A stretch of DNA of 64,000 bases from an uncultured Verrucomicrobiae bacterium. GTDB taxonomy: Bacteria; Verrucomicrobiota; Verrucomicrobiia; Limisphaerales; Palsa-1400. A program made the translations under genes and the position numbers. Location of the stretch: the NCBI GenBank assembly GCA_963707025.1, contig CAVPOM010000016.1, forward strand, positions 64,001 to 128,000. Direction: 5' to 3'. The number at the start of each line of letters is the position of its first letter. Within the stretch, counting starts at the first letter, position 1. Positions 1,582 through 19,859 of this stretch are shown in pieces. Below the pieces are notes generated by a model that made no database searches, was not told where the DNA came from, and was given only the letters and a program-made list of their open reading frames with translations.

Positions 1582-1819
1582 TGAGGTGGACCCCATCCTT
1601 TAGACCACGGAGCGCATGAAATAAGCGCGACTTTTGCCGATTGCTGTCATTACTAATTGTAGTTGACTACTGTTCATTCCGTGTTTCAAAACCCTTTCGA
1701 AAAGAGAGAACGAGCGATGCGGAGCACTGCCCGTCCTCCCTCTCCGTTTTCTTAGGGTTCTCAACTCTACCGCCGCAGGCGGTCTGATTTCAAGCCTTTT
1801 CCTGCCGCCTGCCTCTCTG

Positions 1820-2674
1820 TCAAGTGCTGCGATCGCTCCTGCCTCTGGCAGGTTGCATCGCTTCCCATTTGGCCGGTTGGGCTCCATGCGTGCCGGGATC
1901 AAAATACGCGTCCGCCGGCGTCGCATAGCCCAACGCCTGGTGCGGTCGTTCCCGGTTGTAGCCGTCAAACCACCGGCCCAGTCCGCGCCCTGCCGCCAAC
2001 CCGTCGCCATAGTCTTGCAAATAAATGTCCTCATACTTGGCGCTCCGCCACAGCCGCTCGATAAACCGGTTGTCCATCCAGCGACCCCGTCCGTCCATGC
2101 TCACGTCCACCCCCGCCGATTCCACCGCATCGATAAACATCGGGGAGGTGAACTGCGATCCCTGGTCGGTATTGGAAATCAACGGCGCCTGACGCCCCGC
2201 CCGCAACGCCGCCTCCCAAGCGTCCACACAAAAGTCCGCCTCCAACGTGTTGCTCAAGCGCCATCCCAGCACGTAACGACTCCACCAATCCATCACCGCC
2301 ACCAAATACATAAACCCAGTTGCCATAGGCACATACGTAATGTCCGAACACCAAACCTGATCCGGTCCCGTCACTGCCAAATTGCGTAACAGATACGGAT
2401 AAATCTGGTGCCCCATCTCCCGCAGACTCGTCTTGGGCTTGGCGTAAATCGCCTCGATCCCCATCAACCGCAGCAGCCGCACCACCCGTTTGCGATTGAT
2501 GGTCAAACCCTCCCGGCGCAACAGCACGGTCAGTTTGCGGCTGCCATAAACCGGGTGGTCCAAATGCATCTGGTCCAACCGCCGCATCAGCGCCAGGTTC
2601 TCCTCTGTCTCCGGACAGCACTGGTAATAATAACTGCCACGGCACACCGCCAGCAGCTCGCACTGGCGCCGCAC
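1820..2674 (-). CDS. IS3 OrfB DDE integrase-type transposase
   Basis: YGSRK, W.SDITY, NTDQGSQFT, DN.FIERLWRS.KYE and YN.ERPHQALGY.TP motifs. Confidence 0.93.
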   Translation of the reverse strand: MRRQCELLAVCRGSYYYQCCPETEENLALMRRLDQMHLDHPVYGSRKLTVLLRREGLTINRKRVVRLLRLMGIEAIYAKPKTSLREMGHQIYPYLLRNLAVTGPDQVWCSDITYVPMATGFMYLVAVMDWWSRYVLGWRLSNTLEADFCVDAWEAALRAGRQAPLISNTDQGSQFTSPMFIDAVESAGVDVSMDGRGRWMDNRFIERLWRSAKYEDIYLQDYGDGLAAGRGLGRWFDGYNRERPHQALGYATPADAYFDPGTHGAQPAKWEAMQPARGRSDRST

Positions 2675-2706
2675 GCTGAGCTGCGGATCGGGAGCGATTA
2701 AACATG

Positions 2707-2997
2707 TTAAAGCCCCAGTTGCCTGGACTTTTTTTTAAGCCAGTCCAAGTCCACCGTCAGTTGGCCAATCTTCTCATGCAGTTGGGCAATCAACTGTTCC
2801 TGATCCTCCGTGCGGGGTTGCCCGGGCTCAAACAATTCGGGCATGTGATCCCGAATCGTCGCCCGCCACTGCGTGACCTGCGCCGGATGCACCGCATACT
2901 CTCGCGCCAATTGCGCGACCGTCTTCAGCCCCACCAGGGCTTCGAATCCCACTTTGGCCTTGAAGGCCGCACTGTGTCTTTTCCGTTTTGCTTTCAT
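2707..2997 (-). CDS. IS3 OrfA HTH protein
   Basis: RKRHSAAFKAKV, LAREYAVHP.Q...W and DWLKKK motifs; A8G run at the end is a typical -1 frameshift signal. Confidence 0.9.
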   Translation of the reverse strand: MKAKRKRHSAAFKAKVGFEALVGLKTVAQLAREYAVHPAQVTQWRATIRDHMPELFEPGQPRTEDQEQLIAQLHEKIGQLTVDLDWLKKKSRQLGL

Positions 2998-3075
2998 AAG
3001 TCTGCTCTTTCTTATCTACAGCAAACCGGCAAAAATCGAAACTTACCTGTGGTCTAAAAATAGGGGTCCAGCTCA

Positions 3076-8226: not shown

Positions 8227-8565
8227 ATGCCATCCGACATCTTCCAGGCCAGCCGTTGGACCAGCGGCAATCATTTGTTCCCCACGGTCGTCGAGGTCAC
8301 CGACAAATCGGTCATGCGCCGCAAGCGTGCCTGGTTCAATGTGGATGAAATGAGCATCACCATTTCCAAAGTCGCCTCCATCCACATCAAAACGGGAATT
8401 CTCTGGTCCAAAATTCTCATCGAATCCAGCGGGGGGAGCGATCCGATGGCCAGCCACGGCCACACCAAGGCCGACGCCCGCCGCATCAAGGATTTGATTG
8501 AAAGCTATCAACATCGCGGCCCCGCCGGGCCGGCCCCGGATTCTTCCCCTGCCTCGCAATCTTAA
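8227..8565 (+). CDS. Bacterial PH-domain-like small protein
   Basis: ASRWT.GN.LFP, E.SI.ISK.ASI.I.TGILWS.I.IES.GG pattern; TTGACG-N16-TAAACT promoter 6 nt upstream of ATG. Confidence 0.65.
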   Translation: MPSDIFQASRWTSGNHLFPTVVEVTDKSVMRRKRAWFNVDEMSITISKVASIHIKTGILWSKILIESSGGSDPMASHGHTKADARRIKDLIESYQHRGPAGPAPDSSPASQS

Positions 8566-8672
8566 TCCTAATCTTAATCATAATCCCATCTTCCACTTGG
8601 CCTTCCCCACTGGCGGAAAGAGATTAAGATGACGATTAAGATGAAGATGACGATCACGATTATGATGATGGA
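8556..8672. repeat. Inverted pair of hexamer arrays (TAATCT)n ... (AGATTA/GATGAC)n
   Basis: AATCTTAATCCTAATCTTAATCATAATC then GATTAAGATGACGATTAAGATGAAGATGACGAT; same family at 10191-10218 and 53243-53325. Confidence 0.75.
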
Positions 8673-8747
8673 GCAGGACCCGCATCCCGGCGCGATTAGA
8701 TCATCCCCCGCATTGACTTGTCGGCGCGCCGAGTTCATATTATGGCA

Positions 8748-9509
8748 ATGAGCTTTGACATTTCACCGCTCCTGGACCAGTGGGATTATCAGCCCGGCCA
8801 GCTTGTGGTCAGGAAATTCTTCGGCAAGGACGGCTTGGAGAAAATACAGTTGCGCGTGGACCTGGGCCTGTTGCAAATGAACGCCCAGGGCCGCCCCGAC
8901 GGCAAGCATCCCTACGGGCGCGAATCCCTCCTGGAATTTTACCAGGCGCAAATGGAAAAATTTCAAAAGGAGCGGCGGGGCGATGAAAAGAGCTTCCGGC
9001 TTTCCCCGGAGGATTGCGGGCGGCTGCAGCAGGAGGCCCTCCAGTATCATCACCGTTACATCTGCCTGTTCCAATTGGAGGAATTCGACGCCGTGCTGCG
9101 CGACACGGAACGGAACCTCAAGGTCTTTGATTTTGTGCAGCAGCACGCCGGCACGGAGGAGAGCGCCTGGGCTTTGCAACAGTTTCGCCCCCAGCTTTTG
9201 ATGATGCGCATTCGCGCCCGCGGCGCCATCGCCCTCAAGCTCAATCACTACGATCAAGTCCTGCAACTGGTCGAGAGCGGCCTGGAGGAATTGCGCCAGT
9301 TTTACCGCGAACACGAGCGGACGGACTTGCTGGAGCAAAGCGGCGAGATTCAATCCCTCGAAGCCTGGTTGCAGGAAATCCAGGCCAAACGGCCCCTCTC
9401 CCCGCGCGAACGGCTGGAAAGCGCCCTCAGCGAAGCCGTCAAAAACGAGGATTACGAAAAAGCCGCCCAGGTGCGGGACGCCTTGCGCAATTTGCAGACG
9501 GAAAAATGA
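8748..9509 (+). CDS. Conserved protein with C-terminal UvrB/UvrC motif
   Basis: IQLRVDLGLLQM..GRPDG.HP and EALQYHHRY motifs; C-terminal L.EAV..EDYEKAA.VRD.LR. Confidence 0.8.
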   Translation: MSFDISPLLDQWDYQPGQLVVRKFFGKDGLEKIQLRVDLGLLQMNAQGRPDGKHPYGRESLLEFYQAQMEKFQKERRGDEKSFRLSPEDCGRLQQEALQYHHRYICLFQLEEFDAVLRDTERNLKVFDFVQQHAGTEESAWALQQFRPQLLMMRIRARGAIALKLNHYDQVLQLVESGLEELRQFYREHERTDLLEQSGEIQSLEAWLQEIQAKRPLSPRERLESALSEAVKNEDYEKAAQVRDALRNLQTEK

Positions 9510-9590
9510 CGGTCAGGCCATCCGTCTGGCTGGCCAGGGCAGGCCCTCCCCCGCCCGCCAAGCAACGGAGCGGTTGCCGCCGGCACACCC

Positions 9591-9992
9591 TCAATGGCTG
9601 CGCGGGCGAAAGGTCAGGCGGAAATCCTTGGCGGTGGGCGCGGGGGCGGTTATGGCCAGGGGAAGGGTCTCGTGGCCGAACAAGGTGCAGGGCGGTGGCT
9701 CCATGACAAGGCCCAGCGAGACGCCCTCCCGGTCCAGCCAATCCACCTGGTAAATAATCGTTTTCGCGGTGGCGCCGAGGTTTTCCACGTCCACCTGGAA
9801 TCTTAAGTAGCCTTGTGTCGGGGGCATGTCTTGAATTCTTTTGACTCGTATAATGCCGTTCAGGGCGGGATCCACCGTCACGCGTTGGTCCGGGAGCGTC
9901 TCGGCGGCCCCGACCGTTTCGCCCGGATGCGGCGCGGGAGCCGAGCACCCGGCCAGAACGAGGCACATCACCAGCAAAGGAGCGGATTTCAT
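9591..9992 (-). CDS. YcfL/DUF1425-like lipoprotein
   Basis: Lipobox LAGC; Y.VDWLD.EG and AP.P.A.DFRL motifs. Confidence 0.75.
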   Translation of the reverse strand: MKSAPLLVMCLVLAGCSAPAPHPGETVGAAETLPDQRVTVDPALNGIIRVKRIQDMPPTQGYLRFQVDVENLGATAKTIIYQVDWLDREGVSLGLVMEPPPCTLFGHETLPLAITAPAPTAKDFRLTFRPRSH

Positions 9993-10323
9993 CTTCCGGG
10001 CAACCTAACCCAACCGCGCCGCAGATTCCATCAGAAACAGAAAGGAAAGAGCCGCGCTTCCCGCGCGCGGCCCGCCCGGTTCCTCCACTTCCCTATACGT
10101 CAGCCGCGCCCACATCTTGCAATGCCGTCCCCGCCTGCTTGGCGCGCGCCTCCGGCCGTGCGGCCCTTGATGCCGCCACCATCCGATTCCCTTAATCTTA
10201 ATCCTAATCTTAATCTCATTCCGTCGCCCCACGAAGCGGGGAGAGGGTTAGGGTGAACTGCGGATTTCCCAATTCGGGATTGGGTCATGGTGCATCATCG
10301 GGTTGTTTTTTTGATCAAACCAA

Positions 10324-11745
10324 TTATTTTTTGGTTTTTTGGTAAGCCATTCCACCGAAACGAGCGCCAGGCACTCCCTCAATTTCACCTCGTTCCGCCA
10401 TTTTACTCAAAATGCGTTTCATTTTATCGCTGTCTTTTATAAAGGTAATTTCACGGGCTTTCTTGTTCCGAATACTATCATTTTTTTCAAGATATTTCAT
10501 AATAGTTTGCTCCGGAGAGGCAAGAGGTTCGTGACGAATAGTTATCAGTAAATCATTATCCCGTTCTTCAATTTCTGGGTCTTTCAATCCGAGTTGGTTC
10601 ATTTTATCGAATGCAGTGTTTAACCCTTCTCCAACATCCCTATTCGGCGGGTCTGGAAATTTATTTAGCAAACGAACAATCGCGCCATTTCGAGCGAAAC
10701 GTTCACGGAGTATGTTTTCCGGAGTTACATGCGCTGGCAACCGACCAGGGCTTTGAACCTCAACACGATTATCGAAAATACGAACATGAATATCATCTGC
10801 GATGCTGTAGTCTCTGTGGATGACCGCATTTGTAATGATTTCGTGAAGCGTTTCTTGAGGATATTTAATTGGTTCCAGTCCTCCACTTCCAAGGTGTGAT
10901 ATTTTTTCAATTTCAGAGATTGTCTCCGCAACTGTTTCTTTAATCTGTTTATAAAGATGCCCCTCAACAGTAATTGGAATGAATGTTAGAACATCACGAA
11001 ACCCCTCTGCATCTTGAGTTTCATAACGATATATTTTTATGCCGCAACGTTTCGGGAGTTGCGCTTGTGGCTCTTCTGCGAACAAGAGCAATCCGGCAAC
11101 AGTTGGCATCTCATTTGTAAGTAATGATTGTTTCCGGAGCCAAGGCTCTGGCTGGGCGTTTGGAACAACGAATTTAAGGTAATCTCTTGTAACGGACGAT
11201 TCTGTGATAATTGTTTTAGGCACCGGAACGGTATGGCCTTCAAATGAAGTAACCCCCTTTGTGAACTCCAAACGACGCAATTCCTGTGCTGACTTTTGAG
11301 GTAAGTTCTGAGCGGCGCGTCGTATATACGCAATGCCGTCAGTAGCTTTAATAATTTCACGAGTTCGATTAACTTGAATGTGTAAAACGACCCCTTTCCT
11401 ACGTGGACAGCGTAAGAAATCATACTGGAAATCCCTGCCAAGCGGGAAATGCTTTTCAAATGGTTGAACATGACCGTTAGCGGCTTCAATATCGGCGAAC
11501 CCGGACCACTCACGCTTCTTGACATTCCCTCCAAGGAGTTGTTCGGAGATTCCTATATAAAGATCGCCTCCATCGGTATTTGCAAATGCGGAAATGGTAT
11601 GGCTAAGTTTTGATGGCGTAATGGGGACGGCTTTAACATCGGAGAACTGGCCTTCTTCAATTTGGGTGATTGCCTCGGCCTCGGTCTCGTTAATTTCGGT
11701 GACAGGCTTTTCGCTGGTAAAAAGACTTGTTTGTGATTCGGACAT
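10324..11745 (-). CDS. AlbA_2/Schlafen + HATPase_c_4 + C-terminal wHTH protein
   Basis: E....DVK, ISAFANTDGGDLYIGI (AlbA_2); YP...LHEIITNAVIHRDY, VEVQSPG.LP, RN..I (HATPase_c_4); start taken at MSESQ, though the ORF extends to 11796. Confidence 0.85.
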   Translation of the reverse strand: MSESQTSLFTSEKPVTEINETEAEAITQIEEGQFSDVKAVPITPSKLSHTISAFANTDGGDLYIGISEQLLGGNVKKREWSGFADIEAANGHVQPFEKHFPLGRDFQYDFLRCPRRKGVVLHIQVNRTREIIKATDGIAYIRRAAQNLPQKSAQELRRLEFTKGVTSFEGHTVPVPKTIITESSVTRDYLKFVVPNAQPEPWLRKQSLLTNEMPTVAGLLLFAEEPQAQLPKRCGIKIYRYETQDAEGFRDVLTFIPITVEGHLYKQIKETVAETISEIEKISHLGSGGLEPIKYPQETLHEIITNAVIHRDYSIADDIHVRIFDNRVEVQSPGRLPAHVTPENILRERFARNGAIVRLLNKFPDPPNRDVGEGLNTAFDKMNQLGLKDPEIEERDNDLLITIRHEPLASPEQTIMKYLEKNDSIRNKKAREITFIKDSDKMKRILSKMAERGEIEGVPGARFGGMAYQKTKK

Positions 11746-11879
11746 ATGTTTTATTACGTTCCGGAAATACGATATATCAGTTTCCGGAAATGTCAAATCG
11801 GAAGTCCGATTTTAACGGAAGTAACGTTACTGATTACAAAAGCAGTTACTTAGAAGCGGTAAATAAACGCGAATGTCCG

Positions 11880-11908
11880 TTGACTACGGCAAGCGGTTGC
11901 GGTATATT
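11880..11908 (+). promoter_or_regulatory. Sigma70-type promoter with palindrome in the spacer
   Basis: TTGACT-N17-TATATT; spacer contains GCAAGCGGTTGC; ATG at 11915 lies 6 nt after the -10. Confidence 0.65.
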
Positions 11909-11914
11909 TGAACC

Positions 11915-12076
11915 ATGAAAAATAAACACGCGCAAGCATTAGGGAGGCTCGGCGGATTGGCCGGGACGGGAAAGGCAAAGGCTCGCAAGGTGACAAGCGA
12001 GCAAGCACGGGCCGCTGTAATGGCCCGTTGGAATAAGCCGGGTGCAAGGAAATCAGATCAAAAAGTGAAAACGTAA
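11915..12076 (+). CDS. 53-aa basic peptide (ALGRLGG...A...ARW type), not in the ORF track
   Basis: Manual translation MKNKHAQALGRLGGLAGTGKAKARKVTSEQARAAVMARWNKPGARKSDQKVKT*. Confidence 0.75.
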   Translation: MKNKHAQALGRLGGLAGTGKAKARKVTSEQARAAVMARWNKPGARKSDQKVKT

Positions 12077-12110
12077 AAACAAAGGCCATGCCAGTGTATT
12101 CAGCACTGGC

Positions 12111-13139
12111 ATGACCGCAACTAAAGGCTTTCGCCTAAAGTCGGAATCTCGTTGGATTCACCGACAGCTTAGAGCAAAGGCCGGAAAAGGTCAAATGGTT
12201 TGTCATCGCTGTCAAACAGAAGCATTTAAATTCGGAATCAATGCCCAGGGCTTTCAACGGTATCGCTGCAAAACTTGCGGCAAAACGTTCGCGGATATTC
12301 AACGCCCTCTCGGTTCAATGCGGGTTGACTCGGAAAAAGCGTACGAGGTCATCCGACTGCTTTGCGAGGGAACGGGCGTCCGGGCCTGTGAACGCCTCAC
12401 AAGATTAAACCGGCGCACGGTGTTGAGCATTTTGGAAGTCGCGGGCCGGAAGTGCGAGCAACTCATGGCGGACAAAGTGCGGGGCGTCCAGGTCAAAGAA
12501 GTCCAGATTGATGAGATTTACGGGTTTGTTGGCTGCCTACAGCAGAACACGACCGGCCCGGAGGATTACAGGCGCGGGGAACAATACGCATATCTGGCGA
12601 TTGACCGCGCATCAAAATTCATCATCCATGCCTATATTGGCAAACGCGACACGGAGAACAGCCGAGACTTTTTGAAGGGATTGAAGCCAAAGATCGCCGG
12701 ACGGTTTCAACTCACTAGCGATGGGTTCAGAGGCTACAGGGCGGTTTATGGCGGTGTTGGTTCAATCTTTGGAGAACAAGTGGATTATGCCACAGAGGAA
12801 AAAACCTTTGGGCAGGCGCAGCGTGGCGTGGCCAGGCGGTTCAACCCGGTTGTGTGCCTCTCTGTTCACCGCAAAGCCCGCATTGGAACGCCGGACATGG
12901 CTCGCGCAACAACCAACCACGCAGAGAGAACGAATCTGTCTGTACGCCTTTTTAATCGCCGGTTCACCCGCAAGACGATGGGATTCAGCCGGAAGCTGGA
13001 AAATCACCGCTGGTCGGTCATCCTGCAATCCATGCACTTCAATTGGTGCCGGGTGCATTCCGCGCACAAACAAACCCCGGCAATGGCGCTTGGACTGGCG
13101 GACCATGTTTGGACAGTGGCGGAATTGCTGGCGGGATAA
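12111..13139 (+). CDS. IS1-family transposase (single ORF: Zn finger, HTH, DDE); start possibly 12195
   Basis: CHRC...QRYRCKTC, QIDE, TSDG...Y, ER.NLS.R..NRRFTRKT.GFSRK..NH and TPAMA.GL.DH.WT motifs. Confidence 0.88.
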   Translation: MTATKGFRLKSESRWIHRQLRAKAGKGQMVCHRCQTEAFKFGINAQGFQRYRCKTCGKTFADIQRPLGSMRVDSEKAYEVIRLLCEGTGVRACERLTRLNRRTVLSILEVAGRKCEQLMADKVRGVQVKEVQIDEIYGFVGCLQQNTTGPEDYRRGEQYAYLAIDRASKFIIHAYIGKRDTENSRDFLKGLKPKIAGRFQLTSDGFRGYRAVYGGVGSIFGEQVDYATEEKTFGQAQRGVARRFNPVVCLSVHRKARIGTPDMARATTNHAERTNLSVRLFNRRFTRKTMGFSRKLENHRWSVILQSMHFNWCRVHSAHKQTPAMALGLADHVWTVAELLAG

Positions 13140-13189
13140 TGGGTTCATTTGCCATTGACTCGCTCTCGTTTTGGCGGTACGGTGGAAGC

Positions 13190-15354
13190 ATGTTATTGAG
13201 CAACACGGAAATCCAAAAAGCGATTGATGAGCACGTTTTGTTCATCACCCCCTTTGAAGAAAAGAAGCTAAAGGGGGCCAGTTACGATCTGGCATTAGGC
13301 CGAGAGGCACTTGTCAGCAATCGTGATGAGAAGGTATTTCTGGGGCCAGATCGCACTCATAGTCTTAAATTGGAAGCGGGCGATTTTGCCCTGGTGCTCA
13401 CCAAAGAATCCCTGAAATTCCCAATGGACATGTGCGGGATGATTGGAATGCGCAGTTCATTGGCCCGAATGGGGCTTATACTTTTGCACGGAATGCAGAT
13501 TGATCCAGGTTTTGAAGGATATTTGCGTTTTGGACTTTACAACGCATCTCCCCGCAAAATCACCCTTGATTATGACGATGATATTTGCATGATTGAATTT
13601 CACAAGCTGGTCCAAGCCGCAACCAAACCTGCCCCGCGAAATGAGGACTTAATTCAAGGCAAAATTCCAGAGGTGGACAGACAGTTCTTACGCACGCTAG
13701 AAACCACCAGCTTGAGTGCATTGTCACAAGACATGAGAACCATGTCTGTGAGTGTTTGAGGTGGACCCCATCCTTTAGACCACGGAGCGCATGAAATAAG
13801 CGCGACTTTTGCCGATTGCTGTCATTACTAATTGTAGTTGACTACTGTTCATTCCGTGTTTCAAAACCCTTTCGAAAGAGAGAACGAGCGATGCGGAGCA
13901 CTGCCCGTCCTCCCTCTCCGTTTTCTTAGGGTTCTCAACTCTACCGCCGCAGGCGGTCTGATTTCAAGCCTTTTCCTGCCGCCTGCCTCTCTGTCAAGTG
14001 CTGCGATCGCTCCTGCCTCTGGCAGGTTGCATCGCTTCCCATTTGGCCGGTTGGGCTCCATGCGTGCCGGGATCAAAATACGCGTCCGCCGGCGTCGCAT
14101 AGCCCAACGCCTGGTGCGGTCGTTCCCGGTTGTAGCCGTCAAACCACCGGCCCAGTCCGCGCCCTGCCGCCAACCCGTCGCCATAGTCTTGCAAATAAAT
14201 GTCCTCATACTTGGCGCTCCGCCACAGCCGCTCGATAAACCGGTTGTCCATCCAGCGACCCCGTCCGTCCATGCTCACGTCCACCCCCGCCGATTCCACC
14301 GCATCAATAAACATCGGGGAGGTGAACTGCGATCCCTGGTCGGTATTGGAAATCAACGGCGCCTGACGCCCCGCCCGCAACGCCGCCTCCCAAGCGTCCA
14401 CACAAAAGTCCGCCTCCAACGTGTTGCTCAAGCGCCATCCCAGCACGTAACGACTCCGCCAATCCATCACCGCCACCAAATACATAAACCCAGTTGCCAT
14501 AGGCACATACGTAATGTCCGAACACCAAACCTGATCCGGTCCCGTCACTGCCAAATTGCGTAACAGATACGGATAAATCTGGTGCCCCATCTCCCGCAGA
14601 CTCGTCTTGGGCTTGGCGTAAATCGCCTCGATCCCCATCAACCGCAGCAGCCGCACCACCCGTTTGCGATTGATGGTCAAACCCTCCCGGCGCAACAGCA
14701 CGGTCAGTTTGCGGCTGCCATAAACCGGGTGGTCCAAATGCATCTGGTCCAACCGCCGCATCAGCGCCAGGTTCTCCTCTGTCTCCGGACAGCACTGGTA
14801 ATAATAACTGCCACGGCACACCGCCAGCAGCTCGCACTGGCGCCGCACGCTGAGCTGCGGATCGGGAGCGATTAAACATGTTAAAGCCCCAGTTGCCTGG
14901 ACTTTTTTTTAAGCCAGTCCAAGTCCACCGTCAGTTGGCCAATCTTCTCATGCAGTTGGGCAATCAACTGTTCCTGATCCTCCGTGCGGGGTTGCCCGGG
15001 CTCAAACAATTCGGGCATGTGATCCCGAATCGTCGCCCGCCACTGCGTGACCTGCGCCGGATGCACCGCATACTCTCGCGCCAATTGCGCGACCGTCTTC
15101 AGCCCCACCAGGGCTTCGAATCCCACTTTGGCCTTGAAGGCCGCACTGTGTCTTTTCCGTTTTGCTTTCATAAGTCTGCTCTTTCTTATCTACAGCAAAC
15201 CGGCAAAAATCGAAACTTACCTGTGGTCTAAAAATAGGGGTCCAGCTCAGTTTCCCAACTGGCAAACACCCAGAAATGGTTTATCATTCCAGGCATTGTT
15301 GCGATTTTGGTGGGCGTTATTACCGCCGTTCTCACTGCCATTTTCAAGAAATAA
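13190..15354 (+). pseudogene. dCTP deaminase/dUTPase-fold protein with C-terminal TM helix, split by IS3 (13190-13756 + 15253-15354)
   Basis: ASYDL.LG, RSSLAR.GL and IDPGF.G motifs; removing the IS3 and one GTT restores the frame ...MSVSV-SQLANTQKWFIIPGIVAILVGVITAVLTAIFKK*. Confidence 0.85.
13757..15249 (-). mobile_element. IS3-family element, copy 2 (OrfA 14881-15171, OrfB 13994-14848)
   Basis: Near-identical to 1582-3075 with the same IRs; 3-bp TSD GTT at 13754-13756 and 15250-15252. Confidence 0.95.
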
Positions 15355-15364
15355 CCCTTTGCGT

Positions 15365-15733
15365 ATGTCTTTCCTGCCAGCCGCACAACGAGAGATAGGC
15401 AAGCGTCAACCGGGGGATCCTGTGCGCATGACGCTGGAATACATGGTGCGCCATGCAGTCGGGAGACATAACGCTGTGCCGTTAAGGGATATTGTGGATC
15501 ATCTGAACAATCAAGGACTGACCGTCACGGAAACTGGATTTCAGCAAACAATCCTCGCAGAATCCAGAAGTGGAGATTATTATATAGGGTCGGGCCACAG
15601 GGGATATTTCCTGATAGACACAATTGACGATGCCCGCGTGATGAAATCTTTTTACGAAGCTCGGATTCGGAAAGAAAACCAAAATCTTAATAATTTGCAC
15701 CGGCAGTCCACGGTCATCGGCTGGATTCTCTGA
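15365..15733 (+). CDS. Hypothetical 122-aa protein, possible winged-HTH
   Basis: ATG 10 nt after the restored Dcd-like stop; G..NAV...I..HL.... and IGS..RGYFLI.T pattern followed by an amphipathic helix. Confidence 0.6.
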   Translation: MSFLPAAQREIGKRQPGDPVRMTLEYMVRHAVGRHNAVPLRDIVDHLNNQGLTVTETGFQQTILAESRSGDYYIGSGHRGYFLIDTIDDARVMKSFYEARIRKENQNLNNLHRQSTVIGWIL

Positions 15734-15846
15734 AGATCGTTCCGTTTAACCCCCCATCACATCTCCGCCAGCACAATCTGCGAAGTGGCAATGCGTTGTC
15801 GCTGCTTGCCTTAGGAAACAACCCGGAAGCGCACCATGACCCGGGA

Positions 15847-15876
15847 TTGACATGAGTAATAAGTGAGGACTATATT
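15847..15876 (+). promoter_or_regulatory. Sigma70-like promoter for the Ig-domain gene; -35 overlaps the transposon TSD
   Basis: TTGACA-N18-TATATT. Confidence 0.5.
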
Positions 15877-16182
15877 GTTGGCTGGAGCTTAACAACAGAA
15901 ACCCAAAGGTTTTTGCATGCAATCTTTAACACTCTTCCGGCGGCACGTCTGCATCGCCGCTTTATCCGCGTCTCTTTTCGCCCTGCCCGCGGCGGGGCAG
16001 TCGCAGTCCAACAACGCGTTTTCCATCGTTATCAGCGAACCGACCAATGGCTCGGCCTTTGTCAGCCCGGTCACCGTCCATATCACCGCTTCGGTGTACG
16101 ATGCGACGGATGCGGTTGCCTCCGTCGTGTTTTCGGCAAACCCTCCGCCACCCCTGGAAGGGCCCAGTTTGTTGTTGGGAAA

Positions 16183-17633
16183 CACAGCCATCCCACAGGA
16201 AATTGGAAAAGAGTGTTGGCTTGACCATTTGAACCTGCCACAAGGCAGGCATGAAAAACAAAAAAATCAAACCAACACGGTCCCGGTTTAACGTTTTGCG
16301 CCAGATTTGCAATCTCATTCCTGCGCATGAAGTCTCCAAAATAGCGCGGGAGACCGGGGCTCTGGATAAGTCGCGCACCTTCAGTCCGTGGAGTCACACG
16401 GTCAGTTTGCTGGACGCGCAACTCACCCATTGCATCGGACTCAACGATCTGTGCGACTCGCTGCAATTGCATTCCGGGCCGCTGTCCACTTTGCGCGGCG
16501 CCAGCGCCCCCAGCCGCAACGGCCTCTCCCACGCCAACCGGGAGCGTCCGGCCCAGATGGCCGAACAACTCTTCTGGCGGGTCCTGGAGCATTTGAAAGC
16601 ACAGACGCCCGGCTTTGCCGCGGGCCAGCGCCGTGGCCCCGCCTTCCGTTTCAAGATGCCCATCCATGTGATTGATAGCACGACCATGGAACTGGTGGCC
16701 AACTGCCTGGACTGGGCCAAGCACCGCCGGCGCAAGGCCGCCGCCAAAACCCATATGCGGTTGAATCTGCAGAATCTTTTGCCCGGTTTTGTCATTGTGG
16801 ACACTGCCGCCGAGCACGACAACCGACGGGCGCGGGAACTGTGCGCCGACTTGAAGAGCGGCGAAATCGCCTTGTTCGACAAGGGTTATGTGGACTTCGG
16901 CCACTTGCGGGATTTGGACGGGCGCGGGGTCTTTTGGGTGACGCGGGCCAAGGAGAACATGGGCTATGAGGTGGTGCGGAAAATGCCCGCCTCCAGAGAC
17001 CCGAAGATTTTGCGCGACGAAGTGATCGTCCTGAGCAACGAGAACAAACCCGCGCCGGAGTTGATGCGCCGGGTGGTGGCGCTGGTCGAGATTGATGGAG
17101 AGGAACGGGAAATGACCTTCCTGACCAACAACCTGGAGTGGAGTCCGCGCAGCGTGGCCGACCTTTACCGCTGCCGCTGGCAGATCGAAGTCTTCTTCAA
17201 ACAAATCAAGCAGACCTTGCAGTTGGCGGATTTTCTGGGCCACAACGCCAACGCCGTGCGCTGGCAGGTGTGGACGGCGCTGTTGACCTACGTGCTGTTG
17301 CGCTACCTCAGTCACCTCTCCAACTGGGCGCACAGCTTCACCCGGCTGTTCACGATTTTGCGGGCGGCGCTCTGGGAGAAATATGATCTGCTCAATTTGC
17401 TGGCGTGCTATGGGACAGCAGGCGGCAGCTTTCGCCACTTGGCGCGGCCCGAGCAGGCGTATTTCCCCGGCTTCCAATAAAGCTATGGGACAGCACACGC
17501 GCCCAAACAGGCGCATACCAAACCCAAAAGCCAAACTCGGAAAAATCAAAATCTCATTTTACCCCGAAGACCAATTAAACCCTTGCAAATGAACAGGTCA
17601 GCACCAGACTTTTCCCCTTATGAGACGGGTGTG
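16183..17633 (+). mobile_element. IS4-family element, copy 2 (complete)
   Basis: Imperfect IRs CACAGCCATCCCACAGG / CACACCCGTCTCATAAG; 9-bp TSD GTTGGGAAA at 16174-16182 and 17634-17642. Confidence 0.93.
16251..17480 (+). CDS. IS4-family transposase
   Basis: IDST, FDKGY and YRCRWQIE.FFK.IKQ motifs. Confidence 0.93.
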   Translation: MKNKKIKPTRSRFNVLRQICNLIPAHEVSKIARETGALDKSRTFSPWSHTVSLLDAQLTHCIGLNDLCDSLQLHSGPLSTLRGASAPSRNGLSHANRERPAQMAEQLFWRVLEHLKAQTPGFAAGQRRGPAFRFKMPIHVIDSTTMELVANCLDWAKHRRRKAAAKTHMRLNLQNLLPGFVIVDTAAEHDNRRARELCADLKSGEIALFDKGYVDFGHLRDLDGRGVFWVTRAKENMGYEVVRKMPASRDPKILRDEVIVLSNENKPAPELMRRVVALVEIDGEEREMTFLTNNLEWSPRSVADLYRCRWQIEVFFKQIKQTLQLADFLGHNANAVRWQVWTALLTYVLLRYLSHLSNWAHSFTRLFTILRAALWEKYDLLNLLACYGTAGGSFRHLARPEQAYFPGFQ

Positions 17634-19524
17634 GTTGGGAAACGTTTCCAATTATGTCTCTAACCCGCCGTACCGGACATACAGCGTGGACTGGAGCAAC
17701 GCACTCGCCGGGTCCTGGTCGCTCGGCGCTGGAGCTGTCCGCACCAATGGCACCCCCGTCTCCGTCTCCGCCACGCCCGTGCTCATTACCGTGCGCAATG
17801 GCTATTCGCTTTCGGTGGACATCACCCATCCGACTAATGGCGCCAGCTATCCGGCGCCGACCAACATTAGCTTGGTTGCCGACGTGCAAGCCAGCAACGC
17901 CAATCCGGCCTTCGTGGAGTTCTTCGACAATTCCTCTCTGCTGGCCATCGTGTCCAATTCCATCTCCGCCGGCCCGATGCCGGGCGGCGTCTATCTCTTT
18001 GAGTGGACCAATCCACCACCCGGCCCGCACACGTTAACGGCCAGCGTGACGGATACAAACCGCGTTGTCGCCTGGTCGTCTCCGGTGATGATTACCATCG
18101 GCACCGATTCGTTCTCCATTTTTATCACCAGTCCGACCGATGGCGCTGCCTTTACACAGCCGGTCAATGTGCCCATTGACGCTTCGGTGCTGGATGCGGG
18201 CAAGGACGTTGCGTTCGTGAATTTCACGGCAACGCGGGTCTGGCCCCCAGGGATTATGGCGCCGACGTATCTCATCGAATTAGGCGCTGTTTCTAATTGG
18301 GTTTCGATTGCCCCGCCGCGCCACGATTACCTTGTCGTCTGGTCCAATGCGCCGGTCGGCAGTTGGCGAGTCGCCGCCGAGGCAGTGCGCAGCAACGGCT
18401 TGCCCGAAGGCGGGGCCAGCGTTCAATTCACCGTGTTGGGCAACACGACCAATACCAACAACCTGCCGCCTGTTTTGCGCATCACCAGCCCGCCTAACCA
18501 GAGCGACTTCCGCGCGCCGATGAACATCGTCCTGCTGGCCTACGCGTTCGATCCCGATGGTTGGGTGTCGAGCGTCGAGTTCTTTGCCGGCAGCAACAGC
18601 CTCGGCCTTGGCCATCCCATTCCCAGCCCGATTTCACCCGGCCCAATCTTCCCGGCAAATCCTTACCCCATGCCCCCCATCTACCTGTCCAACCTGTTCG
18701 AGTTGATTTGGACCAATCCCGCGCCCGGTGCTTATGCCGTTACCGCGGTGGCCACCGACAACGGCGGCCTCACGGCCACGTCCGCTCCTGTCAATATTAC
18801 CGTCGAACCCGCGCCGCCTCCCCCGACCAATCGGCCCGCCGTGGTCGGCATTGTCGCCAGCGATCCCATTGCCATTGAAGGCACCAATTGCTGGCCCTGG
18901 CTGGGCGGCCCGCCGACCTGGAGCAACTGGATGTCGCCGACGGCTGTTTGGCGCTGGTTCACCAACTGCGGTCCCAAGGACGCCAGCTTTACCTTGTTCC
19001 GCCGGGGCGATACCAACCATGACCTTACTGTCAACTATGCGATTGGCGGCACGGCCTCCAATGGAGTGGATTATGTGACGCTTCCGGGCAATGTCACCAT
19101 TCCGGCCGGCCAAACCGCGGCGACGATTGCCGTCATCCCGATAGACGATGGCACACCGGACATCAGCAGCACGGTCGTGCTGGCCTTGCAGGCGGACACC
19201 AATACGCCGGCGGATTACGCGCTGGGGTTTCCGTGCCGCGCGGAAGTCATTATTATTGACTCGTTTGGGCCGCGGCGGCTGCCGCCGGGATCGGTTTTGC
19301 CGGACGGTTCTTTTCATCTGAGCCTGACGGGCCCGGATGGCGCGTGGTTCCACATTGATGGCTCGACGGACCTGCTGAATTGGACGCCGCTTTGCACCAA
19401 CCAGGTTGTCAATGGCGCCATTGATTTCCTGGACCCCGACGCCGGCCTCTTTAGCTCCCGGATGTACCGCGCGGTTCCGATGGCCAGTTCCCCCGGCAAT
19501 TAAGAGTGGTGAGGTGAGGCGGCA

Positions 19525-19712
19525 AAGGGGTCAGACCATAGCTTTGTTCAATGAAATGCGTAACAGCCTATAAATCATTGAGTTATAGATTGTTCTATTC
19601 AGGCCCAATATACCCTCTCACCATAACGCCCGTGCGATGCCAGCGCCCTGAGAAACCGCGCCCCAACGGCCTTCCGCCGCCCTTCTTGCCATTTAGCCTT
19701 TAGCCTTTCCTC
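19525..19712 (+). repeat. ~190-bp dispersed non-coding repeat, copy 2
   Basis: Aligns to 5149-5345; starts AAGGGGTCAGACCAT. Confidence 0.85.
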
Positions 19713-19859
19713 CTCCCCACCGCCCGCCCGCCCATCACAGCTTTCACTATTCACCATTCAAAATTCACAATTCTCTCCCGTTCAAACTCCTTCTTCGTTC
19801 TGCATTTTGCATTCTGCATTTCCCGCAACATTGCAGCCCCTCTACTCTGTGTCCTGCTG

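Follow-up and report, generated by a model that had tools for sequence, protein, structure and literature searches.

Insertion sequences (IS) of the IS1 family share the end consensus GGnnnTG and generate target-site duplications of 8–9 bp (ISfinder tables). The IS1 subgroups in ISfinder include 'single ORF' and 'ISMhu11', the latter with elements of up to about 4.6 kb; a literature search for the name 'ISMhu11' returned no paper. Cargo-carrying IS are an accepted category, transporter IS (tIS), in the relevant parts of PMC7986276, PMC9330008, and a TnCentral preprint. Tn7-like transposons are described in the corresponding part of PMC8649781 as having delineated ends and highly diverse cargo, including defence systems. 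In the present study, a stretch of 64,000 nucleotides from an uncultured Verrucomicrobiae bacterium (contig CAVPOM010000016.1, positions 64,001 to 128,000; hereafter, the window) was analysed. Its segment 10283–15841, measuring 5.6 kb from inverted repeat to inverted repeat, is very probably a non-composite tIS that was inserted as a unit. This reading is based on the anatomy of the segment and on comparison with its relatives, and we infer the catalysis itself.

Boundaries and composition of the element

The two terminal inverted repeats (IRs), IR-L and IR-R, are complementary at 21 of 26 positions, as established with a repeat finder and by direct reading. The outermost 11 nucleotides (GGTCATGGTGC) match exactly and are followed by a block of five mismatched nucleotides. 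An exact 8-bp direct repeat, CGGGATTG, abuts both IRs on their outer side. The window was scanned for exact 8-bp direct repeats around an inverted repeat of at least 19/26 with a spacing of 0.7–8 kb, and the CGGGATTG-flanked pair was the only one detected in the 64 kb. Among 50 first-order Markov random windows, one contained any match, with a maximum of 20/26.

The element contains one intact transposase with a zinc ribbon and a DDE-type core, four passengers, and a nested resident IS3 (Table 1). Three genes unrelated to transposition lie within the IRs, encoding a Schlafen-GHKL protein, a membrane-anchored Dcd-fold protein (Dcd-like-TM), and a small protein of 122 aa (ORF122, from open reading frame, ORF). 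The only other transposase inside the element is that of the nested IS3, which has its own ends and duplication. The G+C content is 0.40–0.46 in the cargo, 0.51–0.56 in the transposase gene, and 0.57–0.65 in the flanks, and the unit is therefore compositionally mosaic. Without the nested IS3 and one copy of GTT, the element comprises 4063 bp. An earlier note on this DNA had described imperfect 26-bp IRs, an exact 8-bp duplication, lower G+C content, a single internal IS1-type transposase amid passengers, and a length of about 4.1 kb without the IS3; all of these were recovered in the analysis, and the repeat pair proved to be unique in the window.

Transposase and its relationship to IS1

The transposase ORF is uninterrupted and codes for 342 aa, with the start likely at M29 (12195), where most homologues begin. 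Its best family model was NCBIfam IS1 (NF033558) with 78 bits and an E value of 9e-22, the curated cut-off being 100 bits. The zinc domain NF050000 (IS1_IS1595_Zn) was matched with 29.2 bits, above the cut-off of 28. The Pfam model DDE_Tnp_IS1 (PF03400) gave 23.0 bits (cut-off 24.1), and IS1595 gave only 19 bits. A total of 561 homologues were found at E ≤ 1e-3; the best full-length ones were 54–63% identical and often carried the JGI label 'IS1 family transposase'. In an alignment of 30 clade members, the window transposase conformed at each of the 36 invariant columns, D134, D204, and E272 among them, and the Cys pairs were conserved. IS1 was the best transposase model in 30 of the 30 members (E ≤ 1e-5), two of which also matched IS1595, and some clade members exceeded the Pfam DDE_Tnp_IS1 cut-off (L145, 38.1 bits; L177, 30.3 bits; L176, 26.9 bits). 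Since IS1 is the best model but the curated cut-offs are missed, the transposase was assigned to a distant IS1-related clade and not treated as an IS1 equivalog. The designation 'IS1 family' used previously is thus supported by the model ranking across the clade and by the zinc domain, but not by the scores of the window protein against the curated cut-offs.

Related elements in other genomes

The survey was based on one genome per species and covered 80 related loci, mostly in metagenome-assembled genomes (MAGs) titled Verrucomicrobiota or Acidobacteriota. A bounded element was defined as a GG-initiated IR of at least 15/24 around the transposase, with an exact 8- or 9-bp direct repeat directly outside. 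Bounded elements were detected at 55 of the 80 loci, compared with 1 of 80 in a control with the right arm reversed and uncomplemented. The expectation that related transposases are enclosed by similar IRs and 8-bp duplications around variable cargo was thereby borne out. The 55 elements ranged from 1656 to 6683 bp, with a median of 3097 bp. Their duplications measured 8 bp in 54 cases and 9 bp in one, with a weak CA....TG bias, and the 110 ends yielded the consensus GGT(A/C)(G/A)TG...GTTG, in which positions 1–3 and 6–7 were nearly invariant. There was near-identity over 25–26 nucleotides between IR-R of the window element and the ends of both L032 and the remnant at L112/L113. Nested IS were present in two of the 55 elements (IS21 in L055 and IS3 in L092). 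None of 64 bounded elements was a bare IS, and all 64 were longer than one.

The cargo varied strongly between elements. Clustering of the 230 naive ORFs with 60 aa or more by similarity gave 180 clusters, of which 162 were singletons. Among the 145 cargo ORFs of at least 100 aa, 29 had Pfam matches, which included P63C (four), SocA_Panacea (two), HicB, MqsA, M78/IrrE, XRE-type helix-turn-helix (HTH) domains (HTH_3, four), HNH (two), DUF2513 (two), DUF3467 (two), DUF1643, DUF4258, one DCD, and proteins of nested IS. In an acidobacterial subgroup of 12 loci (L058, L063, L074, L077, L078, L082, L083, L085, L088, L093, L103, and L104), two ORF families of about 87–117 aa and 183–254 aa, with 12 members each, were located upstream on the transposase strand; their counterpart in L102 contained an HTH_17 domain. 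These families may be accessory parts of the elements and not cargo.

Two further observations concern the sites occupied by related elements. The elements at L048 (8418–10996, 2579 bp) and L049 (7468–10996, 3529 bp), which belong to two MAGs, have the same duplication, GGAATTTG, and are 82% identical in the transposase and right flank, but their cargo is unrelated, which points to in-place exchange of cargo or to a common hot spot. Strong PADLOC matches were located beyond the IRs at L035 (7592–8731) and L049 (12061–13707), comprising PDC-M02B with 515 bits and a DRT-type reverse transcriptase. Variable or defence regions may be preferred landing sites of such elements.

Sibling elements, empty sites, and copy number

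The window genome contains 13 places similar to the transposase, 10 of which were examined besides the window copy. Six of these 10 were bounded sibling elements; they measured 2708–5295 bp, and each was flanked by an exact 8-bp duplication of its own. Their cargo included an HTH-M78 protein, a superinfection-immunity domain protein, and a proteasome-like protein, and the sibling on C2 also holds a nested IS3 (C2:90390-91882). For two of the six siblings, precise empty sites, with the flanks contiguous over a single target 8-mer in a base-level check, were found in genomes of the same genus: G003 has the empty sites of both the C14 element (3017 bp) and the C15 element (5132 bp), and G005 has that of the C14 element. 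As for the other four, a larger indel was present in relatives at C17, only the right flank was matched for C9, and only part of the left flank for C4 and C2. The comparison with relatives that had been suggested for the window copy gave no empty site there, but it gave precise ones for these two siblings. In three genomes of the same genus (G003, G004, and G002), position ~10157 is joined straight to ~19845; because the whole stretch 10158–19845 is absent from these relatives, the window copy has no readable simple empty site.

It could not be shown that identical cargo had been mobilised together to two sites, since the elements at L085 and L103 were single-copy in their own genomes and no pair among 64 elements was alike over more than 50% of its length at the DNA level. 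In public reads from 14 runs, at most 0.31 of the sampled words were present. Runs X1, X2, X3, and X5 gave good coverage of the IS3 alone, at many other insertion sites. In X1, a few element contigs of 150–270 nucleotides with a depth of 2–8 were obtained; none reached across the ends of the element or across a Dcd gene lacking the IS3, and they were uninformative either way.

Several observations weigh against a tIS at this place. The terminal IRs are imperfect, with the 5-nucleotide mismatch block inside them, and the window transposase scores lower than the curated IS1 models require (78 bits for a cut-off of 100; 23.0 bits for one of 24.1). No bounded element was obtained at 25 of the 80 related loci, some of which were cut by contig ends and others located on long contigs. 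No empty site was found for the window copy among 40 relatives searched with window 8300–17800, or in additional alignments. The element is single-copy in the window genome, apart from a 3' transposase fragment of 88% identity. A near-identical copy was found nowhere, the best transposase matches being only 61–73% identical, and recent activity is therefore unproven.

The imperfect IRs and the missing empty site would also fit a coincidental occurrence of the IRs and the 8-bp repeat around genes that are mere neighbours in a low-GC island. Such a coincidence appears extremely improbable, since the pair is the only one of its kind in the window and the single matching random window was even weaker, the end motif and duplication length recur across the surveyed loci far beyond the control, and IR-R is almost identical to the ends of other elements. 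The tIS reading is accordingly retained, and the earlier proposal of a single-transposase cargo transposon with defined ends agrees with the anatomy, the 55 family loci, and the sibling empty sites.

The following course of events is proposed. One zinc-ribbon/DDE transposase of the IS1-related clade would recognise the IRs beginning with GGTCATG, and would have moved the whole IR-to-IR segment with its passengers into a target site cleaved with an offset of 8 bp, leaving CGGGATTG on either side. The insertion point lies 68 bp upstream of a secreted repeat-protein gene, in a strain-specific island of 9.7 kb. The resident high-copy IS3 later entered the Dcd-like passenger and truncated it. The G+C content of the passengers, lower and uneven, suggests that they are hitch-hikers of different origins.

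Genes carried by the element

The features of the element are listed in Table 1.

Table 1. Features of the element and its target-site duplications (window positions)
Feature	Position	Strand	Basis or remark
Left 8-bp target-site duplication, CGGGATTG	10275–10282		Identical to 15842–15849
IR-L, GGTCATGGTGC...GGGTTGTTT	10283–10308	+	21/26 against IR-R; matches family end consensus GGT(A/C)(G/A)TG...GTTG
Passenger 1, Schlafen (AlbA_2)-GHKL ATPase (HATPase_c_4)	10324–11745	-	Pfam, motif, homologue lengths
53-aa basic peptide gene	11915–12076	+	Just upstream of transposase; conserved placement in relatives
Single-ORF transposase, N-terminal CxxC...CxxC zinc ribbon and DDE-type core	12111–13139	+	NCBIfam, Pfam, alignment
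Passenger 2, N-terminal 189 codons, Dcd/dUTPase-fold domain	13190–13756	+	Pfam DCD, TIGR02274
IS3 GTT duplication	13754–13756 and 15250–15252		Flanks nested IS3
Nested IS3-family element	13757–15249	-	Own IRs; NCBIfam IS3, 242.8 bits
IS3 orfB	13994–14848	-	Inside nested IS3
IS3 orfA	14881–15171	-	Inside nested IS3
Passenger 2, C-terminal 33 codons, hydrophobic membrane-anchor tail	15253–15354	+	In frame with 13190–13756
Passenger 3, ORF122 (122 aa)	15365–15733	+	Family unassigned; possibly winged-helix-like small protein
IR-R	15816–15841	-	Repeat pair with IR-L; resembles L032 and L112/L113 ends
Right 8-bp target-site duplication, CGGGATTG	15842–15849		Direct reading

Schlafen-GHKL protein

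The Schlafen protein comprises 473 aa when read from the ATG at 11745; the listed ORF extends to a TTG at 11796. Both Pfam domains were matched above their cut-offs, SLFN_AlbA_2 (PF04326) with 39.4 bits (cut-off 25.3) and HATPase_c_4 with 57.2 bits. The AlbA_2 match begins with an intact Ex4DxK motif (E48-GQFS-D53-V-K55). More than 5000 homologues were matched at E ≤ 1e-10; the top 120 were 70–84% identical, measured 465–480 aa, and came from MAGs named from several phyla. No Pfam support for a C-terminal winged HTH was obtained even at E ≤ 5. In PADLOC, the protein gave only partial, domain-level matches to pAgo/Aga models, which fit the Schlafen-GHKL-Argonaute fusions described in the available part of a 2026 preprint.

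According to the relevant part of PMC13056530 (Nat Microbiol 2026), Ex4(E/D)xK is the catalytic signature of prokaryotic Schlafen (pSlfn) nucleases, HisKinase (34.0%) and HisKinase-HTH (19.2%) are the commonest pSlfn architectures, and for 69.6% of pSlfn genes a known defence gene is found at a distance of no more than 10 kb. Protection is reported there for the DUF262-Slfn and Ig-like-Slfn fusions; carriage by tIS is not mentioned in that part. The window protein shares with pSlfn the Slfn/AlbA_2 domain with its motif and the fusion to a histidine-kinase-like (GHKL) ATPase. It differs in having no confirmed C-terminal HTH and in an architecture that is not among the protective fusions of that part of the paper. 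Within the cargo, the Schlafen-GHKL protein is the leading defence candidate, predicted to act as a regulated effector of the RNase type. It is a legitimate candidate because the family has proven defence members, and a defence payload is plausible for this gene alone, although rather doubtful.

Membrane-anchored Dcd-fold protein

The two halves of the Dcd gene are in frame once the IS3 and one GTT are removed, and the reconstructed protein has 222 aa. It was matched by Pfam DCD (PF22769) with 86.1 bits and by TIGR02274 with 100.4 bits (cut-off 92.8). The best match was 94% identical and also 222 aa long, and intact homologues measured 216–232 aa. The RSSLAR and IDPGF motifs are conserved. In the alignment to solved structures, the window protein has Gly at the position of the Glu in 'TLEL' of 4xjc. 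The same position is occupied by Ala in 1xs4 and Asp in 2v9x (E. coli entries), and by Met in the closest solved relatives, 9ln0 and 8y1w. We take 1xs4 and 2v9x to be engineered E138 mutants of E. coli Dcd, and the catalytic Glu to be E138 in the numbering of that protein. No relevant paper was found on PDB 9LN0, 8Y1W, or 9LN3. Across 120 homologues, the catalytic position held Gly in 108 and Ala in two, and could not be parsed in 10. Each of the 110 homologues with a length of 205 aa or more ended in a hydrophobic segment, and the tail of the window protein matches those at L112/L113, L118, L122, and L127.

The protein thus shares the fold family and conserved motifs of Dcd and bifunctional Dcd-dUTPase (4xjc, 1xs1, 9ln0, and 8y1w), but it differs from the solved soluble Dcd enzymes in the Gly replacing Glu and in the added C-terminal membrane anchor. 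With regard to naming, public sources give the Dcd-like-TM family (P0122–P0240) as 'dCTP deaminase', and all 110 parsed members are without the catalytic Glu; this naming is likely a systematic misannotation. From the Gly or Ala in place of the catalytic Glu and the hydrophobic tails, it was concluded that the family is almost certainly not a dCTP deaminase. The protein is probably nucleotide-binding and not a deaminase, and could bind or hydrolyse nucleotides at the membrane.

The surroundings of Dcd-like genes were studied in 58 metagenomic loci encoding relatives. An IS1-like transposase or its remnant was located beside the Dcd-like gene at 10 of them (L112, L113, L114, L122, L131, L141, L142, and L145–L147), L122 and L131 being bounded elements with exact 8-bp duplications. 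The remnant at L112/L113 has the order of a C-terminal transposase fragment, an intact Dcd-like gene, and an IR-R nearly identical to that of the window, and is without ORF122. At L051, the gene that immediately follows a 49%-identical transposase within the IRs encodes a 222-aa Dcd-like homologue with the same tail and Gly. An exclusively mobile role is opposed by seven other loci that have the gene amid housekeeping genes. Within the phylum, 4 of 301 sampled genomes had matches to the Dcd-like protein at E ≤ 1e-10, the three others being 31–34% identical.

It is highly improbable that the Dcd-like gene is an ordinary dCTP deaminase gene of nucleotide metabolism that was simply picked up. The TIGR02274 score above the cut-off, the naming of the homologues, and the position of several of them amid housekeeping genes speak for this origin; the replacement of the catalytic Glu in every parsed homologue, the universal hydrophobic tail unlike that of the solved soluble enzymes, the few matching genomes of the phylum, and the repeated linkage to transposases speak against it.

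Small ORFs

ORF122 had no match in Pfam, NCBIfam, or PADLOC. Its nearest Atlas clusters are unnamed, mostly viral, and about 118 aa long (score 0.94). The AF2 single-sequence model was mediocre, with a pLDDT of 69.5, and a Foldseek search against PDB gave nothing at E ≤ 0.001, with MarR/PadR-like rows at E values of 0.1–0.5. ORF122 is a small phage-like ORF, possibly with a winged-helix-like fold. The winged-HTH labels proposed earlier for ORF122 and for the Schlafen C-terminus were not confirmed by Pfam, and only a weak fold resemblance is left for ORF122.

No family match was found for the 53-aa basic peptide in Pfam, NCBIfam, or PADLOC. The peptide is conserved upstream of related transposases (82% over 50 aa in L033, 61% over 38 aa in L035, and 15 aa in L052), and probably belongs to the transposition or regulatory module rather than to the cargo.

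Possible roles of the cargo

A conflict-related role of the cargo, either anti-phage or inter-element, was judged the most likely one, and it is put forward tentatively. A number of results argue against a function in defence. With PADLOC-DB v2, no system was identified in the element, and the four products other than the Schlafen protein had no match. The cargo of the family was not enriched in PADLOC matches, which were obtained for 9 of 145 ORFs in the cargo and for 15 of 145 ORFs sampled at random from the flanks of the same loci; the flank ORFs were longer (median 262 aa), and many of their matches were generic ATPase domains. Two of the nine cargo matches were nested-IS proteins, and the strongest was PDC-S42 in L038 with 270 bits. 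The enrichment of defence matches for which the earlier note had suggested a test was accordingly not observed. At seven other loci, the Dcd-like-TM gene is placed amid housekeeping genes (NAD synthase, ParB, GyrB, and thioredoxin). In the part of PMC13056530 considered above, the tested Slfn-HisKinase fusions gave no protection in the phage panel used.

The passengers had also been interpreted as a two-part anti-phage cassette, with Schlafen and nucleotide-pool enzyme modules mobilised as one system. The intact Ex4DxK motif, the proven defence members of the pSlfn family and its frequent vicinity to defence genes in the same part of that paper, and the superinfection-immunity, HTH-M78, antitoxin-like, HNH, and PDC-S42 genes of sibling elements are in line with such a cassette. 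A loose parallel is also provided by L143 and L144. At L143 (686–4514), as at L144, the gene order is IS1595-family transposase, Dcd-like protein (308 aa), and HATPase_c_4 protein (385 aa); the Dcd-like protein has Ser at the Glu position and a non-membrane C-terminal extension. These loci give the only hint that Dcd-like and Schlafen-type genes belong together: apart from them, the Schlafen, Dcd-like, and ORF122 genes did not co-occur in any of the 80 genome and 58 metagenome loci. Known defensive deaminases are kinase-fused and zinc-dependent, and the Dcd-fold protein, with Gly at its catalytic position as in 108 of the 110 parsed homologues and no PADLOC match, is unlike them. Moreover, the genes stand on opposite sides and strands of the transposase, the Dcd-like gene is now broken, and PADLOC matches in cargo do not exceed those in flanks. 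The two-part cassette is thus improbable.

Alternatively, the passengers could serve the element itself through stabilisation or addiction, regulation of transposition, or exclusion of rival mobile elements, which appears unlikely, though less so than the cassette. Antitoxin-type and regulator genes (SocA_Panacea, HicB, MqsA, HTH_3, M78/IrrE, and DUF4258) occur in the relatives, the 53-aa peptide and the two acidobacterial ORF families are conserved by the transposase, and no bare element was seen among the 64. Furthermore, proteins with a dUTPase fold are frequently encoded by phages and retroviruses. The predominance of singleton clusters (162 of 180) argues against passengers being essential for transposition; in addition, the window copy yielded no toxin partner, and disruption of the Dcd-like gene by the IS3 was tolerated.

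A broader proposal is also considered unlikely. The clade could represent an obligately cargo-bearing lineage acting as a shuttle for small payloads of conflict genes in soil Acidobacteriota and Verrucomicrobiota, with Dcd-like-TM as an undescribed transposon-associated function. Dcd-like-TM accompanies at least nine different IS1-like elements and, in one case, an element of the IS1595 type. If the proposal were true, Dcd-like-TM might be, for example, a nucleotide-sensing exclusion or abortive-infection protein, and Schlafen-GHKL and Dcd-like proteins might form a recurring pair as at L143/L144.

Genomic surroundings

The 9.7-kb island (10158–19845) holds the tIS and a gene for a secreted Ig-like-repeat protein, which begins at 15917 and resumes at 17620–19503. 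The latter gene is split by a second IS at 16185–17637, encoding a 409-aa DDE transposase (ORF 16251–17480), with further copies in the genome at C18:719864-721316 and C6:186320-187772. To the left of the insertion, TAATC-type hexamer repeats (~10185–10222) are followed by an element of about 43 nucleotides (10214–10256), which recurs at 88–95% identity in several places in related genomes.

The window genome contains 35 other full-length copies of the nested IS3 that are at least 99.4% identical, one of them at ~1582–3075 of the window; its insertion into the Dcd gene is therefore considered a later, local event. The IS3 is in a recent burst, and public soil, sediment, and peat runs carry it at many insertion sites.

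Significance and comparison with known systems

The results imply that single-transposase, IS-sized elements in little-studied soil phyla would routinely move 0.5–5 kb of mostly unknown genes, a gene flow that will be missed by gene callers and IS annotators expecting elements of about 1 kb. The end rule GGTnnTG...GTTG, combined with the 8-bp repeat, offers a simple delimiter for hundreds of such elements, and their ORFan cargo could be a source of candidate new conflict or defence functions. A conserved family labelled 'dCTP deaminase' is flagged as almost certainly misnamed. No paper was found on the window clade or its cargo habit in CC-licensed PMC and bioRxiv texts, a search that did not extend to ISfinder.

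The window clade resembles the Tn7-like transposons, as described in the part of the source cited above, in being a transposon lineage with defined ends that bears diverse cargo. It differs from them in using one small DDE transposase for 0.5–5 kb of cargo with no PADLOC enrichment, compared with the multi-protein machinery and large cargo of Tn7-like transposons. With the IS1 family, typified by IS1 of E. coli, the window element shares the N-terminal zinc ribbon, the DDE core, and IS1 as the best model; its ends, GGTCATG, fit GGnnnTG, and its duplication is 8 bp, with 9 bp once in the clade. In contrast to classical IS1, in which InsA and InsAB' are produced with a programmed -1 frameshift, the window element has one long ORF, and elements of its type are three to six times longer than IS1 owing to their cargo. 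With tIS, to the extent that the cited sources cover them, it shares one transposase, terminal IRs, a target duplication, and passengers between the IRs. The kind of element is thus already known, and the clade-wide cargo habit and the recurrent Dcd-like-TM passenger may be new. The difference from tIS lies in this habit: as all 64 elements exceed the length of a bare IS, cargo carriage is the rule in the window clade and not an occasional variant.

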